This document shows, one piece after another, positions 17,907 through 24,401 of a stretch of 34,066 nucleotides of DNA. The position numbers and the translations under genes are program-made. The DNA is from a virus (taxonomy: Duplodnaviria > Heunggongvirae > Uroviricota > Caudoviricetes): the IMG/VR virus record IMGVR_UViG_2541047909_000004, positions 1 through 34,066 of that record. One strand, 5' to 3'. Numbering within the stretch: position 1 is the stretch's first letter; every line of letters begins with the position of its first letter. The notes under the pieces are model-generated. The model was not told the DNA's origin. It saw only the letters and a list, made by a program, of their open reading frames with translations, and ran no database searches.

Positions 17907-18083
17907 TGTTCATTCCACGGACAAAAACAGAGAAAGGAAACGACAGAGGCCAAAAAGCTCGCTTTCAGCACCTGTCGTTTCCTTTCTTTTCAGAGGGTAT
18001 TTTAAATAAAAACATTAAGTTATGACGAAGAAGAACGGATACGCCTTAAACCGGAAATTTTTCATAAATAGCGAAAACCCGCG

Positions 18084-18095
18084 AGGTCGCCGCCC
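18084..18095. other. cosN cohesive-end site of the prophage (within lambda-like cos)
   Basis: AGGTCGCCGCCC (reverse complement of GGGCGGCGACCT) flanked by lambda left-end and right-end sequence, about 180 bp upstream of Nu1. Confidence 0.85.
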
Positions 18096-18294
18096 CGTAA
18101 CCTGTCGGATCGCCGGAAAGGACCCGCAAAATGATAATAATTATCATCTACATGTCACAACGTGCATCTACGCCATCAAACCACGTCAAATAATCAATTA
18201 TGACGCAGGTATCGTATTAATTGATCTGCATCAACTTAACGTAAAAACAACTTCAGACAATACAAATCAGCGACACTGAATACGGGGCAACCTC

Positions 18295-18489
18295 ATGTCA
18301 ACGAAGAACAGAACCCGCAGAACAACAACCCGCAACATCCGCTTTCCTAACCAAATGATTGAACAAATTAACATCGCTCTTGAGCAAAAAGGGTCTGGGA
18401 ATTTCTCAGCCTGGGTCATTGAAGCCTGCCGTCGGAGACTAACGTCAGAAAAGAGAGCATATACATCAATCCAAAGTGATGATGGATGA
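18295..18489 (+). CDS. Small phage protein (64 aa), YlcI/DUF3950-like
   Basis: ORF between cos and bor; family assignment by recall only. Confidence 0.5.
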   Translation: MSTKNRTRRTTTRNIRFPNQMIEQINIALEQKGSGNFSAWVIEACRRRLTSEKRAYTSIQSDDG

Positions 18490-18850
18490 ACATCCCGGTT
18501 TCTTCCACCATCGCACCGGAAAAGCGACTATGAGGGTAACCCTGCGTCTGTCAGCACAGTAAAACCCGGTGTGCATCGTTTTTGATTATTCCCGCACACT
18601 CACGCAGAAGGAATTCCCCGTCGGGCTACGGTCATGGTTAATGCGGGAATACGGCGACGATACAGCGCAGCTAAAAGGGTAATGGACAGATAGAGCGGTT
18701 TATTTCATTCCACAGGATTCTGAGTGCCCCCCCCTCCTCCAATAGGCTGAGCATCCACCTATATAGTTTTAATTTTCATCAATCCATTTAACTATCGTTT
18801 AATTGTTGTCACATAGGATTCTGCCGTTTTTAACAATGCAGGATAATAAG

Positions 18851-19144
18851 ATGAAAAAAATGTTGTTTTCTGCCGCTCTGGCAATGCTTATTACAGGATG
18901 TGCTCAACAGACGTTTACTGTTGGAAACAAACCGACAGCAGTAACACCAAAGGAAACCATCACCCATCATTTCTTCGTTTCGGGAATTGGACAGGAGAAA
19001 ACTGTTGATGCAGCCAAAATTTGTGGCGGCGCAGAAAATGTTGTTAAAACAGAAACCCAGCAAACATTCGTAAATGGATTTCTCGGTTTTATTACTTTAG
19101 GCATTTATACTCCGCTGGAAGCGCGTGTGTATTGCTCACAATAA
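18851..19144 (+). CDS. bor: Bor lipoprotein (serum resistance)
   Basis: MKKMLFSAALAMLITGCAQQ... lipobox LITGC; 97 aa; opposite strand to late genes as in lambda. Confidence 0.9.
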   Translation: MKKMLFSAALAMLITGCAQQTFTVGNKPTAVTPKETITHHFFVSGIGQEKTVDAAKICGGAENVVKTETQQTFVNGFLGFITLGIYTPLEARVYCSQ

Positions 19145-19175
19145 TTGCATGAGTTGCCCATCGATATGGGCAGCT

Positions 19176-19637
19176 CTATCTGCACTGCTCATTAATATAC
19201 TTCTGGGTTCCTTCCAGTTGTTTTTGCATAGTGATCAGCCTCTCTCTGAGGGTGAAATAATCCCGTTCAGCGGTGTCTGCCAGTCGGGGGGAGGCTGCAT
19301 TATCCACGCCGGAGGCGGTGGTGGCTTCACGCACTGACTGACAGACTGCTTTGATGTGCAACCGACGACGACCAGCGGCAACATCATCACGCAGAGCATC
19401 ATTTTCAGCTTTCGCATCAGCTAACTCCTTCGTGTATTTTGCATCGAGCGCAGCAACATCACGCTGACGCATCTGCATGTCAGTAATTGCCGCGTTCGCC
19501 AGCTTCAGTTCTCTGGCATTTTTGTCGCGCTGGGCTTTGTAGGTAATGGCGTTATCACGGTAATGATTAACAGCCCATGACAGGCAGACGATGATGCAGA
19601 TAACCAGAGCGGAGATAATCGCGGTTACTCTGTTCAT
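19176..19637 (-). CDS. Rz: Spanin inner-membrane subunit Rz
   Basis: [44 protein letters not shown]... 153 aa; ATG overlaps the R stop. Confidence 0.9.
19235..19417 (-). CDS. Rz1: Spanin outer-membrane lipoprotein Rz1 (embedded in Rz, +1 frame)
   Basis: 60 aa, ...[19 protein letters not shown]...[29 protein letters not shown]. Confidence 0.85.
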
Positions 19638-20131
19638 TGCTGACCCCACAAACAGATTTCACGCTCAATCTCACGACGAGTCATGAGACCTTTCCATTGC
19701 TTACCGCCAGCATATGTCCAGCGACGTAGCTGATCACATGCGCCTTTGATATCGCCCTGGTTTATTTTGCGAAGAAGCGTCGATGTTCTGAAATTGCCAG
19801 CACCCACGTTGTAAACGAATGAGTAAAGAGCGCCGCGCATTGTTTCCGGTATATCGACTTTGATGTACGGGTTAATTTGTCTGGCGACCGTGGCAAGGTC
19901 TTTATTCAGGAGGGCTTTGCATTCTGCTTTGGTATACGTTTTACCGAGCATGATGTCTTTTCCTGTATGCCCGTGACATACAGTCCATACACCAACAATA
20001 TCTTTGTATGGTATGTAGCTGACACCTTCCAGACCATCGTTACCACTTGGGCCAGTGATTAACACTGATGCTATAGCAATTGCTCCGCCACCAATAGCAG
20101 CAGCAACGGCTTTTCGTAATGATGGAGGCAT
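19634..20131 (-). CDS. R: SAR endolysin (phage-21-type lysozyme)
   Basis: 165 aa, [44 protein letters not shown]... N-terminal signal-anchor-release domain. Confidence 0.85.
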
Positions 20132-20346
20132 TATTCACCTCTCGCAGCCTTGCGCTTATCTTCTTTAATCTTGAAATAAAGGTTTGTCAGGTACGTCAGC
20201 AGGCCAAATACCAGGCTACCCAGCACACCTATTGCTGCCCACTGTGAGGGCGTGACTTTATCGAGCAGCTGTAAAAACCAGTAACCGGCACTACCTGCTG
20301 AGGTGCCATAGGCGACACCCGTTGTTAACTTATCCATGGATTTCAT
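20131..20346 (-). CDS. S: Pinholin (S21-type), dual-start motif MKSMDK
   Basis: 71 aa with two transmembrane segments; directly upstream of the SAR endolysin. Confidence 0.85.
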
Positions 20347-20471
20347 AACCCCACCTCGCAGACAAAGCGGGTGTAAATTAAGGGGATATTACGTATCGCA
20401 ATAAAGGCAGAAACGTAACAGATTCGGAGTCAGTGAATAACTCAGGTATTGGGTTATCAGCTAATATCGAG

Positions 20472-20508
20472 ACTCAAAAAATGGAAAAACCCGCTCGACG
20501 GCGGGTTT
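20472..20508 (-). terminator. Rho-independent terminator upstream of S (candidate late tR')
   Basis: Minus-strand AAACCCGC/GCGGGTTT stem followed by TTTTCCATTTTTTGAG, about 140 bp upstream of the S start. Confidence 0.6.
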
Positions 20509-20934
20509 AAGCTGTGTGACGAAGTAACCACTCTTAACAGCATAACCAATTTTTTACGTACGTAAACTACTAAATGATATTTGTGAGAATGCCACCGAGT
20601 GTTCAAAACACCACCACAAATACATAAGAAAACTTCAACAAATAATCAGTTAATAATTTCCGATGTTATTTTTAGTTTGTTTAAATTAAGCTAAAGAATT
20701 ATAGAGCACTTATAAATAAGTGCCATTAATATAAATTAGCTAATAGATTTATTTTTGTTCAGACAAGAGCCATGAATAGGATTAGATAGAAAAGGTTCAG
20801 ATAAAAATAGAGATCTACTTCACAAATTAAATGAGAAACTAAAACTTACATCTTGAAATAATCACATTGATTAGATGAATATTTATCGCGCAGTGACATC
20901 ATTTTTTAATAATAGTTCAAAAAAAGGGCGTACA

Positions 20935-22017
20935 ATGAAAAAATTAACAGTGGCAATTTCTGCTGTAGCTGCATCAGTACTGATGGCGATGTCTGCTCAG
21001 GCAGCTGAAATTTATAATAAAGACAGTAACAAGCTGGATCTATACGGGAAAGTTAATGCCAAGCACTACTTCTCCTCTAATGATGCAGATGATGGTGATA
21101 CTACTTATGCCCGTCTTGGCTTCAAAGGTGAAACCCAAATCAACGATCAACTGACTGGTTTCGGTCAGTGGGAATATGAATTCAAAGGCAACCGTGCTGA
21201 ATCTCAAGGTTCTTCCAAAGACAAAACCCGTCTTGCATTTGCAGGCCTGAAATTTGGTGATTACGGCTCCATCGATTACGGCCGTAACTACGGTGTAGCA
21301 TACGACATCGGTGCGTGGACTGACGTTCTGCCAGAATTCGGTGGTGATACCTGGACCCAAACAGATGTGTTCATGACTGGTCGCACTACTGGTGTTGCAA
21401 CTTATCGTAACAACGACTTCTTTGGTCTGGTCGATGGCCTGAACTTTGCTGCTCAGTATCAGGGTAAAAATGACCGCACTGACGTAACTGAAGCCAATGG
21501 TGATGGTTTCGGTTTCTCCACTACTTATGAGTATGAAGGATTCGGCGTGGGTGCAACCTATGCTAAATCAGATCGCACTGACGGTCAGGTCGCCTATGGT
21601 AAGAGCAAATTCAATGCCTCCGGCAAAAATGCGGAAGTATGGGCTGCAGGCCTGAAATATGATGCGAACAATATCTATCTGGCTACCACATATTCTGAAA
21701 CTCAGAATATGACCGTTTTTGGTAATAACCATATTGCAAACAAAGCACAAAACTTTGAAGCAGTAGCACAATATCAGTTTGACTTCGGTCTGCGCCCATC
21801 TGTTGCTTACCTTCAGTCAAAAGGTAAAGACCTTGGTGTTCATGGTGACCGAGACTTAGTCAAGTATGTCGATGTCGGTGCTACTTACTACTTTAATAAA
21901 AACATGTCTACTTTTGTTGATTACAAAATCAACTTAATTGACGATAGTAAGTTTACCAAAACAGCTGGTATTGATACCGACGACATCGTCGCTGTAGGTC
22001 TGGTTTATCAGTTCTAA
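20935..22017 (+). CDS. nmpC: Outer membrane porin (OmpC/OmpF family; NmpC/Lc-like phage porin)
   Basis: 360 aa with signal peptide [38 protein letters not shown] start of mature porin and C-terminal ...VGLVYQF. Confidence 0.85.
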
Positions 22018-22027
22018 TCTGACTTAC

Positions 22028-22068
22028 GAAAAAGATATGTTGCGGGAGGCTTTGCCTCCGCAACATAT
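22028..22068 (-). terminator. Hairpin with T-run on the minus strand (terminator after Q operon)
   Basis: ATATGTTGCGGGAGGC/CCTCCGCAACATAT stem; A-run on plus equals U-run for the minus-strand transcript. Confidence 0.5.
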
Positions 22069-22154
22069 AAGTGGAGCCCTCAAGCCACTTCCTTTAGAAG
22101 CACTACCTTGCTTCTTACTATATAAACCTTCTGTTATATATTACCCTTTATTTT

Positions 22155-22180
22155 GGGGGCGTTTCCACGCCCCATTTTTA
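22155..22180 (+). terminator. Rho-independent terminator downstream of porin gene
   Basis: GGGGCGT-TTCC-ACGCCCC followed by ATTTTTA. Confidence 0.6.
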
Positions 22181-22205
22181 ATAACTTTTAGTAAACAATT
22201 GCATA

Positions 22206-22589
22206 TCAATTAGAATTATTAGCAACGATATCCATATCTAACCGGATATCTAATGCCATTAACATCCCTTCAATTATGCCCTCAGCCTTCTGTAACCTTT
22301 TCCCGATATAACCATCCGAGCAGCAATGCTTACTTGCCAGTGACATGAATGTCATACCACATACATAATAATCTACTAATAAATCGTGTAAATCGCTGTT
22401 GTTCTTTTTCAGACGGGCCATGCACCCGCAAATGATCATCGCGTCATCGTCACAACAATGCGGGCGAGATTTTACTTTTGAAGGAATTAATCCCTTAAAA
22501 CCGGCGGCAATGGACGACCAGGCCACATCTTCATGATTATTAGCCGCCCACGCTCCCCAACGTTCAAGAACCATCTGAATATCACGCAT
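22206..22589 (-). CDS. Q: Late-gene antiterminator Q (phage 82/QuuD type)
   Basis: [22 protein letters not shown]...[16 protein letters not shown]... Cys-rich Q82-like; position upstream of the lysis genes. Confidence 0.8.
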
Positions 22590-22606
22590 TAACTTTCTCC
22601 ACAAAA

Positions 22607-23602
22607 TCAGGCCAGCACACCAATCGCCAGTGCGCGATCGATAAAACGAAATATCAGCTCCAGCTGGGAGCCATACTTCTCTTCAAATGCCACGGTATCC
22701 GCATGCAGTTCGTCGTGGTGTTTTCTGCACAAAGGCAGCACAAAAAGGTCATGCGCTTTTGTACCCATTCCACCCTGACCATGGCCTATCAGATGATGCG
22801 GATCATCAGCTGGCTTTCCACAACATGCACACGGCTGCGTCTTAACCCAGCGCGTGTACTGTTCATTAACCCAGCGACGACGTTTGGGGCGTAACATAAA
22901 AGACTCCGGCGACTCCGGATCCACTTTCAGCGCCAGCACCTTTTTCGCTTTATCCTGGATAATGCTGGTGGCAGGAACCGAAGGCACAAGGTCACTTTCC
23001 CGGGTGACAGACGGCAAAACAGACTTCGGTAATCTCAGTGCCTTACGGGCTGCGCTTTCCGGTAAGGCATCCGCCAGGTCATTACGAACCAGCCACCAGC
23101 ACAGTTCCGGCATTGTCACGGCATGGTTATCATTAAAATCGAGATCCCGACGGACTACAGACAACACCCAACGGGCACAGTTATCCGTTGCCATTGATTC
23201 CAGCCGCTCCGTGAACTGATCACGTAACTGATTATCGCAGTGCCAGCACAGACGGATTGCGCCCGGCGCGTGTCGCATTGTGGTCATGTTCTCGCTGTGC
23301 CAGTCGGAATGAGGCCACTGGCAGCCTTTTTCACGAAGTAACCAGCTTTCAAGACATTCCACCCCACCAGCACGACGAATCACTGCCTCATTACGGAACA
23401 CGGCCCGAACGGCAGGATCATCCGCCAGCGGTTGTGATGCCGCGGGAACGGCACCACTGGCGAAAGATGAATAATGCTCCGGCTCAGGCTCCAGCAGTAC
23501 ACGCCCCTGCATAAACAGGGGCATCAGCTCTGAACCGGGCCTGAACAATACGATCCCCATACGCGGGGCAATTTCAGGGGTCAATAGTGCTCTCACGGTC
23601 AC
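22607..23602 (-). CDS. DUF968-like protein with Cys/His-rich C-terminal motif (putative HNH-like nuclease)
   Basis: ...[43 protein letters not shown]...; start uncertain (GTG at 23602 or ATG at 23560). Confidence 0.6.
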
Positions 23603-23603
23603 C

Positions 23604-24401
23604 TCAATGAACGGTATCGAGCAGCTTTAACAGCTCAGGGAATCGGGATTCGAAGAAATGCGGCTGCGTCTCGCGCGGATTTGCGGGACTGGTGATGTTC
23701 TTGCCGAACATGCAGCCTTTCGCTGTCAGCGACCAGAATTTTTTGATGTTGTTAATCGCGGTACGGCTGTATCGTTCGCGCTGCTCGACGATCCCCAGCT
23801 TCACCATCTGGTGATATGCCTGATTAGCTGTCAGGCGGATACCATACTGCTTCAGCAGTGCACTCAGTGACAGCGTGGGACGGCTTGAGCCATCAGGCGC
23901 GTCAGCAGGAGCATCAATGGCATAGCGCGGTGCCAGATTCGGTAAGCCAACAGCCTCCTGGAGTTTCTGACAGGCACCAAGCACTGAAGAGTTAGACAGG
24001 TTTAACTCCCGGCGCATAAAGTCCAGCAGAATCACGCCAGCCTGCATCTTGTCAGCAGCCTGCCCGGATAATTTTTCCGATGCGCTGGTTACCATATCGA
24101 AAGTACGGATCACCTTCAGATGGAATGACGGGCTGATCCACATTGCATAGGCATACACCAGTTCTTTGCAGACATACGTCCCCTGGTTATTTCCGCCACG
24201 AATAACGTTAACTGGCTCTATATTGACCGAGTTGCAAATCTGCAACTCGCTTATTAAACGTTCAGTTTGCTCATTGCGGAGCCAGAATGCAGGCTTATGC
24301 TTATCCAGAGAACCGGCAGCCCTGTGCAGATCGTTCAGGCTGTAACGCCCATAAGCATCACGACGAACTTCAATACCATCAATGACCATCAGATTATTCA
24401 T
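23604..24401 (-). CDS. KilA-N domain protein
   Basis: N-terminal VIDGIEVRRDAYGRYSLNDLHRAAG...KPAFWLRNEQTERLISEL typical of KilA-N; ATG at 24401 with SD GAGGAG. Confidence 0.7.
   Translation of the reverse strand: MNNLMVIDGIEVRRDAYGRYSLNDLHRAAGSLDKHKPAFWLRNEQTERLISELQICNSVNIEPVNVIRGGNNQGTYVCKELVYAYAMWISPSFHLKVIRTFDMVTSASEKLSGQAADKMQAGVILLDFMRRELNLSNSSVLGACQKLQEAVGLPNLAPRYAIDAPADAPDGSSRPTLSLSALLKQYGIRLTANQAYHQMVKLGIVEQRERYSRTAINNIKKFWSLTAKGCMFGKNITSPANPRETQPHFFESRFPELLKLLDTVH

Follow-up and report, generated by a model that had tools for sequence, protein, structure and literature searches.

Porin genes of the nmpC/lc type have been studied since the 1980s, and the porin moron is textbook material. 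The order in the DLP12 (qsr') prophage of Escherichia coli K-12 is quuD, opposite-strand porin gene nmpC, essD-rrrD-rzpD, and bor, and the lc porin gene of the lambdoid phage PA-2 is presumably the same kind of porin moron as the one described here. Other lambdoid opposite-strand morons (bor, lom, and rexAB) are likewise self-contained, prophage-expressed genes with their own promoter and terminator. The nmpC promoter (PnmpC) is active in K-12, and promoter activity was lost when positions -199 to -1 relative to the nmpC start codon were deleted (PMC11677980), while NmpC expression in a lysogen of prophage Perceval was 10-fold above background (PMC9928086).

Two groups of phages serve as references for late control. 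The Stx phages 933W and VT2-Sakai have a pR'-tR' block that overlaps the 3' end of Q, with the cargo (tRNAs, stx) downstream of tR'. The phage 21 cassette contains Q21, the QBE (ATTGAGCA+AATGAGCA), the SDPE, and a terminator, with the Q elements located between -35 and -10 (PMC6606751). Its Q belongs to the same Pfam family as that of the DNA analysed here, and the two also have in common S21/R21-type lysis genes. In phage 21, and by prediction here, the pR' transcript is short and stops at a terminator close by.

The window (the whole stretch of DNA that was analysed, 34,066 nucleotides of IMG/VR record IMGVR_UViG_2541047909_000004) showed the same locus and order as DLP12. On the minus strand, Q was followed by the opposite-strand porin gene, a P21/S21-type holin gene, and then lysozyme, Rz/Rz1, and bor, as listed in Table 1. 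Judged by sequence, the window is the prophage found at the DLP12 site in E. coli NCTC86, to which a 2.55-kb module was 100% identical; the chromosomal site, argU/intD, is common to the NCTC86 prophage and DLP12. Of 5426 complete E. coli genomes, 2393 contained the module at a coverage of at least 80%, as did 36 phage records. The porin is annotated in NCTC86 and in phages 2G7b, ev017, and Perceval, the last of which has the module at 98.9% identity. The DLP12 intergenic regions aligned with those of the window at 96%, with a 17-bp indel between tR' and S. Since the DNA is identical to that of a sequenced E. coli strain and is common across the species, the porin moron is already known and brings nothing new to the field at that level. 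The site of the porin cassette, between an antiterminator gene and its target promoter, is unusual and differs from the sites of bor, lom, and rexAB.

Table 1. Features of the late-control region, with positions in the window and the basis of each assignment
Feature	Positions	Strand	Basis or reading
bor	18848-19144		Profile search
Holin gene S (P21 type)	20131-20346	-	PF04971, E 2e-35; essD in the NCTC86 annotation; first late gene 3' of tR'
tR' intrinsic terminator	20477-20508	-	Scan call, fold, homology to the VT2-Sakai terminator
Conserved initially transcribed region TAAGAGTGGTTACTTCGTCACACAGCTT, presumed pause/qut part	20509-20536	-	Conservation across Q classes
Putative pR' late promoter: -35 TTTACG (20566-20561), 16-nt spacer, -10 TATGCT (20544-20539)	20539-20566	-	Homology to VT2-Sakai
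Perfect palindrome TTTACGTACGTAAA, proposed Q-binding element	20553-20566	.	Position, phage comparison
Porin promoter region (PnmpC)	20736-20934	+	Homology to the K-12 stretch needed for promoter activity
Porin gene (NmpC/Lc type), intact, 360-aa precursor	20935-22017	+	Pfam, NCBIfam, NmpC identity
Hairpin 1 (22035-22068) with minus-strand T run (22034-22027)	22027-22068	-	Possible terminator of transcription leaving Q, or 3' stabiliser of porin mRNA
Hairpin 2 with T run, probable intrinsic terminator of the porin transcript	22156-22183	+	Scan call, fold
Q antiterminator gene (QuuD type, Q21 family), 127 aa	22206-22589	-	PF06530; quuD in the NCTC86 annotation

A complete OmpC-family porin gene lying between Q and S against the late operon, as in DLP12, had been proposed, and the open reading frame, the profile matches, and the flanking genes all agreed with it. 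The product matched the whole of Pfam Porin_1 (PF00267, 1-337 of 337, E 1.9e-151) and scored 521 bits against the cut-off of 484 for the NCBIfam “porin OmpC” subfamily, and its translation showed a signal peptide at the N-terminus and ended in ...VGLVYQF, with an aromatic last residue as expected of general bacterial porins (OmpC/OmpF/PhoE) for assembly into the outer membrane. It was 91% identical to K-12 NmpC over the N-terminal 346 codons, with differences in the surface-loop stretches; the K-12 gene has an IS5 after codon 346, whereas the window porin is intact. Upstream of the gene, positions 20841-20941, homologous to part of the K-12 PnmpC stretch, formed a conserved block of the intergenic region. 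No plus-strand hexamer pair above the threshold of the consensus scan was found for the porin promoter, and the exact promoter was not located.

The late promoter was placed by comparison with the Stx phages. The 85-bp stretch 20569-20485 (minus strand) showed about 78% identity to the sequence just after Q in Stx phages, and 20566-20477 (minus strand) was homologous to the annotated putative pR'-qut-tR' of VT2-Sakai/933W. The putative late promoter of VT2-Sakai reads TTTACG-16-TATCAT, and 933W, VT2-Sakai, and H-19B have a homologous promoter, transcribed region, and terminator, the same -35 TTTACG, and a palindrome at the same place. The homology to the VT2-Sakai block and the 79% identity of Q to VT2-Sakai/933W Q point to pR' being on the S side of the porin, so that the porin cassette would split Q from its promoter. 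This placement appears to be new here. The region upstream of S had been named as the candidate pR'/tR' region, and the alignment of 20569-20485 with the annotated VT2-Sakai promoter, qut, and terminator upheld that choice. A start near 20532 is predicted from the spacing.

The promoter scored 8 of 12 consensus matches, under the scan threshold of 9. Comparison was made with 50 unique upstream sequences, 6 of which look like chance matches; among the remaining 44 phage-type variants, 43 had TAnnnT at the -10 position. The A tract and the palindrome were each rejected as the -10, with a T tract occurring there in some classes and only TAnnnT keeping A2 and T6. A start site for the DLP12 lysis operon taken from a construct described as “-121 to +650” (PMC7918800) was likewise rejected. 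The primers of that fragment mapped from the nmpC signal-peptide codons to about essD codon 40, or about -650 to +120 from the essD ATG, and since these ends disagree with the published numbers, the latter define no start site.

The distance from the Q stop (22206) to the palindrome edge (20566) was 1639 bp, and the promoter is therefore not immediately after the Q gene. A similar split was seen in many related phages, and since Q acts in trans, the separation is no argument against function. Lambda, phage 21, and 933W have the promoter directly behind Q, and a lambda-like arrangement could be imagined in the window as well, with late transcription running antisense across the porin and the hairpin at 20508-20487 an ordinary terminator that plays no part in Q control. 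This is highly improbable: the consensus scan found no minus-strand promoter-like site in 22018-22205, the 933W-type block of promoter, transcribed region, and terminator is intact at 20566-20477, dozens of related phages have the same block with other cargo placed between it and Q, at distances of 0.6-2.5 kb, and hairpin 1 would oppose such transcription.

Downstream of the S-side pR', the region 20509-20536 was near-invariant across phages with different palindromes, also in loci fetched by a terminator anchor, and VT2-Sakai carries the annotation “putative Q-utilization” at the homologous ACATTGCC. A convincing -10-like pause element was not found in this conserved transcribed region; the best candidate, TACTTC (TACATT in 933W), has no T at position 6. 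The pause element of phage 21, at +2, has no clear counterpart in the window, and TAAGAG was rejected as the equivalent of the phage 21 element TAAGCTG, as it begins 2 nt past the -10 hexamer. The strong minus-strand terminator predicted at 20472-20508 was called by the scan at 20508-20477, within that span. It consists of a stem at 20508-20487 (AAACCCGC/GCGGGTTT) followed by TTCCATTTTTT to 20477 (8 pairs and then TTCCATTTTT in the scan), and stands about 25-55 nt downstream of the predicted pR' start. The alignment to the VT2-Sakai annotation and the 79% identical Q proteins identify it as tR'. The stretch 20566-20461, which includes tR', was an island of conservation within a variable intergenic region.

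The palindrome TTTACGTACGTAAA spans the -35 hexamer of pR' and the first 8 bp of the spacer. The original prediction of a perfect 14-bp palindrome was right as to its existence and perfection, but its position is 20553-20566 and not 20556-20569, a shift of 3 nt. The window contained 2 perfect 14-bp palindromes against 2.3 ± 1.5 in dinucleotide shuffles; since the count matches the shuffle expectation, the palindrome alone is not significant and takes its meaning from its position and the phage comparison. TTTACGTACGTAAA aligned with TTTACGATCGTAAA of VT2-Sakai, which is also a perfect palindrome and covers the annotated -35. Of 43 promoter variants, 35 had a palindrome with its centre at this position, in at least 7 sequence classes, and arms of at least 4 were observed in 93% of cases compared with 50% in shuffled controls. 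Palindrome class and Q recognition-helix class corresponded 1:1 (about 52 unique Q proteins), and the match held both for Q genes next to the promoter and for those 0.6-2.5 kb away with various cargo in between. The window and 933W have in common the half-site TTTACG and the helix IGKRL; their central dinucleotides differ (TA in the window, AT in 933W), and symmetry is kept in both. Since each palindrome class matches one Q recognition-helix class, the palindrome is probably a Q-binding element, and the suggestion that it might be a regulatory site is thereby given a location over the -35 and spacer of pR' and a likely Q specificity. The association could partly reflect shared descent, because the cargo always enters at the same spot. 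A full-text literature search for the palindrome sequences returned nothing relevant.

Two other explanations of the palindrome were weighed. In the first, it is simply the -35 plus spacer with incidental symmetry, and Q reads another site, such as the 6-7 variable bp that separate the A tract from the -10. The chance-level frequency of 14-bp palindromes would agree with this, as would two further points: the A-tract-to--10 segment differs between classes, and in phage 21 the Q element is a direct repeat lying against the -10. We regard it as unlikely, since at least 7 unrelated sequences at one position are all palindromic about a fixed centre, long arms exceed the shuffled controls, the change from TA to AT at the centre keeps the symmetry, and within a Q class the palindrome is invariant while the A-tract-to--10 segment varies. 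In the second, the palindrome is bound by some other dimeric protein that represses or activates late transcription and is encoded by the phage or the host. Symmetric dimers are the typical binders of palindromes, and effects of RpoE and Hha on the DLP12 lysis operon have been published, as cited in PMC7918800. That a regulator other than Q is responsible is quite improbable, since Q, the only linked protein compared, covaries with the palindrome across differing cargo and flanks, and a host factor would not explain class-specific sequences.

Recognition of the palindrome by Q would have to differ from that in phage 21. The Q of the window matched the full PF06530 profile (E 2e-53) and weakly matched the solved Q21 chains 6P18/6JNX (E 7.7e-8, residues 8-88). 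In the alignment its inter-helix segment had 8 residues (SKHCCSDG) compared with 26 in Q21, so that the long minor-groove loop of the Q21 type is absent, which points to an ordinary HTH. The palindrome is centred at about -27 and is followed by an A tract, whereas the phage 21 element is a direct repeat that extends from -27 to -12 and has its centre 7-8 bp further downstream. With this shift of centre and the difference in symmetry, the Q21 model is not directly transferable. It is proposed, tentatively and at somewhat less than even confidence, that Q proteins of the Q933/QuuD branch (Q21 family) use as their binding element a short palindrome plus A tract, centred near -27 over the pR' -35 and read by a short-loop HTH, perhaps as a symmetric pair, unlike the direct repeat of Q21 or the single site of AlpA. 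Under this proposal, opposite-strand cargo would have entered repeatedly at the upstream edge of the element (in the window the porin; in other phages Kiwa, a KAP NTPase, an NYN protein, and further cargo), and control would survive a distance of kilobases between Q and its promoter.

The gap between the porin and Q contained two hairpins. The stem-loop of hairpin 2 (22156-22173) has 7 pairs, GGGGCGT/ACGCCCC, 6 of which are G-C, with a folding energy of -13.8 kcal/mol, and the tail ATTTTT follows on the plus strand only (ATTTTTAATA after the stem in the terminator scan). Among 19 sequence variants the stem was invariant and 3 of the 4 loop positions varied. Hairpin 1 has a 15-bp stem with one bulge and four A-U pairs at its base, and folding energies of -23.5 kcal/mol on the plus strand and -22.6 kcal/mol on the minus strand (z about -4). 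Its T run, CTTTTTCG at 22034-22027, is on the minus strand only; the minus-strand tail reads CUUUUUCG and the plus-strand tail has no U run. Hairpin 1 was kept in all 19 variants, in which a G/C change shifts the bulge.

It had been predicted that one hairpin terminates the porin transcript and the other the minus-strand transcription leaving Q. The placement of the T runs fitted this crossed arrangement, but canonical terminator anatomy was found in hairpin 2 only and hairpin 1 was weaker: a G+C-rich stem with a direct U run was present in hairpin 2 (+) and tR' (-), and hairpin 1 was only partly canonical. Promoter and terminator prediction, which had been put forward as a check, gave calls for hairpin 2 and tR' but not for hairpin 1, a miss of the consensus terminator scan that is attributed to the bulge. 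Five terminator-like sites were found in 20100-22700, compared with 2.1 ± 1.6 expected. A Rfam scan of 18000-24000 at permissive E-values gave two chance-level matches only, so the hairpins and the short pR' transcript lie outside known RNA families.

Termination of Q-leaving transcription at hairpin 1 is plausible but weaker, since the A-U-rich base of the stem and the missing scan call suggest that it may be a poor terminator. These two features would equally suit a stem-loop that stabilises the porin mRNA, or a relic of the cassette, with transcription leaving Q being rare in lysogens; addition of a strong rrnB terminator in the K-12 nmpC/quuD gap, which caused no measurable change (PMC11677980), agrees with such a role. 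We consider this quite conceivable though not probable, against the facts that the U run lies on the Q strand only and that the hairpin persists in every one of the variants.

Taken as a whole, the locus is likely to be the late-control region of a DLP12/qsr'-type lambdoid prophage with a classic NmpC/Lc porin moron, pR' on the S side, and Q acting through the palindrome. The ancestral order, kept in 933W/VT2-Sakai, would have been Q with pR'-qut-tR' directly behind it, ahead of the late genes. In the window, the space from the Q core to the upstream edge of pR' would be filled exactly by a cassette of about 1.64 kb (from about 22205 to 20567) that contains the porin gene, its own promoter, and the two hairpins; compared with 933W/VT2-Sakai, the window has this opposite-strand cargo on the upstream side of the promoter and a replaced C-terminal tail of Q. 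The cassette points against late transcription, so in the lysogen the porin's own promoter would drive its synthesis. The porin mRNA would end at hairpin 2, and hairpin 1 may stop or damp transcription leaving Q before it enters the porin antisense. Late transcription would start at pR' and, without Q, end about 50 nt further on at tR'. Supplied in trans, Q would recognise the palindrome over the -35 and spacer and load onto RNA polymerase near the promoter, and the Q-loaded polymerase would pass tR' and go on into S, R, and Rz.

Next to the known porin moron, the reading of the palindrome adds a modest point that can be tested. In DLP12-type prophages, a precise location can be given for pR' and tR', on the S side of the porin, a point of use to studies of the DLP12 lysis cassette, with its biofilm and vesicle phenotypes, and of IS5 activity driven by nmpC. 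In 933W-type phages, stx is driven by a promoter of this same architecture. If palindromes can be matched to Q helices by reading the sequence, the compatibility of Q with pR', and with it the expression of toxin once prophages have recombined, would become predictable. The code (IGKRL with TTTACG, IRKEL with GCG-TA-CGC, IRIEI with GCGG-N-CCGC, and further pairs), if true, would tell in advance which late operons, stx included, a given Q allele can drive.

The late region of the window reads on the minus strand, and its features are listed in the table below. The original prediction of a porin moron transcribed against the late operon, between the late antiterminator gene Q and the holin gene S, was borne out. 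The 20100-22650 module was 100% identical to E. coli NCTC86. At a coverage of at least 80%, 2393 of the 5426 complete E. coli genomes contained it, as did 36 phage records, with NmpC, OmpD or OmpC as the porin annotation. The NCTC86 element is found at the DLP12 site, adjoining intD and tRNA-Arg. The porin showed 91% identity over the first 346 codons to K-12 nmpC, which is interrupted by IS5. The regions upstream of S agreed at 96% in alignment between the window and K-12 DLP12, with a 17-bp indel at 20400-20416, between tR' and the S start; only one other part of the porin-S intergenic region varies more than the 40 nt flanking this indel. From the gene content and these matches, the porin moron is real, intact and already known. 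In the NCTC86 prophage (L125, the whole window), one tail gene is occupied by an IS66-family element and the tape-measure and terminase genes have frameshifts; the prophage is therefore probably defective, though bigger than K-12 DLP12. The bor/iss homologue immediately past Rz/Rz1 is a second opposite-strand moron.

Features of the late region and of the porin cassette
Feature	Position	Strand	Remarks
DUF968 gene	22607-23602	-	
Q	22206-22589	-	PF06530, E 2e-53
Hairpin 2	22156-22173	+	7-pair G+C-rich stem, then ATTTTT on plus strand only
Hairpin 1	22035-22068		15 pairs, one bulge; T run CTTTTTCG on minus strand only
Porin gene	20935-22017	+	Porin_1, full profile, E 1.9e-151
Predicted pR'	20566-20539	-	-35 TTTACG, 16-nt spacer, -10 TATGCT
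Palindrome	20553-20566		TTTACGTACGTAAA, perfect, 14 bp
Putative tR'	20508-20477	-	stem 20508-20487, then TTCCATTTTTT; called by scan
P21-type holin gene (S)	20131-20346	-	
Lysozyme gene	19634-20131	-	followed by Rz/Rz1
bor/iss homologue	18848-19144	+	Lambda_Bor, E 3.8e-30

In K-12, PnmpC lies within 199 bp 5' of the start codon and is active; adding a terminator between nmpC and quuD made no measurable difference (PMC11677980). NmpC is among the expressed prophage genes of an LF82 lysogen, from phage Perceval (PMC9928086). Phage Perceval carries the porin module at 98.9% identity. The PA-2 porin Lc changes the host porin set and shields lysogens from OmpC-using phages. The porin alleles (window, L004, L005, L031 and L089) vary almost solely in three short precursor stretches (residues ~181-190, 215-232 and 262-268), the remainder being nearly identical, and we would expect these stretches to be surface loops. 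Lambda qsr' hybrids show the DLP12 Q-S-R block to be functional, and phage 434B in the phage collection is a hybrid of this type.

Two hairpins 3' of the porin gene had been predicted to stop opposing transcripts. Their T runs do lie on opposite strands, and hairpin 2 (fold -13.8 kcal/mol) was called by the consensus terminator scan, but hairpin 1 (about -23 kcal/mol, z near -4) was not. Across 19 sequence variants from related loci, the stem of hairpin 2 was invariant while three of its four loop positions varied, and we read it as the probable porin terminator. The stem base of hairpin 1 has four A-U pairs and, with no scan call, its efficiency as a predicted terminator is uncertain. In this crossed layout, a transcript would run through the hairpin meant for the opposing one before ending at the hairpin meant for it. 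Within the porin coding sequence the scan returned another terminator-like site (21689-21711, plus strand), a hairpin of 10 pairs, only 3 of them G-C, and a T run; it is probably due to chance.

A sensitive DNA search with 20347-20934 matched 360 phage records, most of them only at query positions 366-450 (window 20569-20485). The VT2-Sakai homologue of this stretch starts inside the last codons of Q and is annotated with a putative late promoter (TTTACG-16-TATCAT), a putative Q-utilization site and a rho-independent terminator; the alignment is colinear from palindrome through terminator. The two Q proteins share 79% identity, and the window Q is only distantly related to Q21 (E 7.7e-8 to 6P18). 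In the gap between Q and the porin gene, a consensus scan of the minus strand found nothing promoter-like. The proposed late promoter region and minus-strand terminator upstream of S both gained support from this homology, and we conclude that they represent the predicted pR' and tR'. Judged from spacing alone, the pR' start should lie near 20532, and transcripts ending at tR' would be short, about 50 nt. In 29 aligned intergenic sequences (the window and 28 unique variants, the search pattern fixing only 17 nt of the island), 20566-20461 formed a conserved island with variable DNA on both sides. Where the porin-S intergenic region varies most, there is a promoter-like site directed to S (ATGGCA-17-TATAAT, 20698-20726, minus strand), with an inverted repeat between its hexamers (20705-20724, 8-bp arms, -8.6 kcal/mol, z -3.9).

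A 1639-bp cassette of porin, porin promoter and two hairpins has been inserted from the Q core to the upstream edge of the predicted pR', and it also replaces the C-terminal end of Q. Past ...RLDMD, the Q tail is IVANNSN in the window (22206-22230) and 24 residues, overlapping the promoter, in 933W. Since the tail varies past the conserved L(D/E)MD in all classes of the 52-protein alignment, the cargo junction lies directly after the Q core. Cargo recurs in the Q-pR' gap, spanning 0.6-2.5 kb and lying for the most part on the opposite strand, in related IMG/VR loci (including L007, L010, L014, L024, L046, L048, L051, L057, L061, L070, L104 and L116): Kiwa (KwaB, E 2e-150), a KAP P-loop NTPase, an NYN-domain protein, an alpha/beta hydrolase, an HNH protein (PDC-M68A), PDC-S42 and lipoproteins; several gap proteins had no family match. 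The gap is a general cargo site, and the porin is one of the genes that fill it.

The predicted 14-bp palindrome is real and perfect, three bases from where it had been placed. The window contains two such palindromes against 2.3 in shuffles, so it is unremarkable by itself and its position is what matters. The second, CATCAGTACTGATG at 20972-20985 within the porin signal-peptide codons, is consistent with chance. The first runs from the -35 hexamer of the predicted pR' through the eighth base of the spacer, and its 933W/VT2-Sakai counterpart, TTTACGATCGTAAA, is also a perfect palindrome, differing solely in the central TA/AT. A scan of IMG/VR for the motif conserved in the transcribed region gave 120 loci, whose promoters share a -10 TAnnnT followed by G and usually T, the nearly invariant transcribed region TAAGAGTGGTTACTTCGCCACACAGCTT and the terminator. 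At one fixed upstream place, usually next to an A tract, they carry differing palindromes (GCGTACGC, GCGGTCCGC, TTCGTTACGAA, TGGAATTCCA, TGTTATAACA and TTTACAATCGTAAA). Of the 43 unique promoter variants, 35 had their symmetry centre at one common position. Arms of at least 4 were present in 93% of the variants; shuffled controls reached this in 50% of cases. A second, terminator-anchored scan gave further palindrome variants and showed the transcribed region to be conserved independently of the first anchor. This region (20509-20536, minus strand) was almost invariant across phages of different Q/palindrome classes (L002-L186), and no convincing -10-like pause element was found in it or its homologues. 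TAAGAG is similar to TAAGCTG, the pause element of phage 21, but is too near the -10 to act likewise.

The Q gene 5' of each promoter was extracted, 52 unique proteins were aligned with Q21, and the second helix of the helix-turn-helix (HTH) was tabulated against the palindrome. The match was one to one, as shown below.

Q recognition helix and promoter palindrome
Helix	Palindrome
xIGKRL(Q/H)	TTTACG-(TA/AT)-CGTAAA
WVGRLLQ	TTTACAATCGTAAA
xIR(K/S)E(L/M)Q	GCG(T/C)ACGC
x(I/V)RI(E/V)(I/M)Q	GCGG-N-CCGC
K(I/V)RLKLM	TTCGTTACGAA
QVVIRLQ	TGTTATAACA
xVLKRLQ	TGGAATTCCA

It held both where Q ends 5-46 nt short of the transcribed block and where unrelated cargo separates the two by 0.6-2.5 kb. Such a pattern would be expected if a specificity module (Q with its DNA site) were combined with a common one (-10, pause region and terminator), and we therefore propose the palindrome as a candidate Q-binding element. 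Common descent could account for part of the association. The Q element of phage 21, unlike the palindrome, is a direct repeat (ATTGAGCA and AATGAGCA) at -27 to -12 (PMC6606751; annotated record), and Q21, the only solved relative, has a 26-residue loop between the HTH helices against eight residues in these Q proteins. The single 6-bp site of AlpA (PMC9371919) also differs from the palindrome. The observation behind the original prediction is confirmed, and its interpretation as a whole is supported and sharpened. The palindrome as a candidate Q element is the one new, testable idea.
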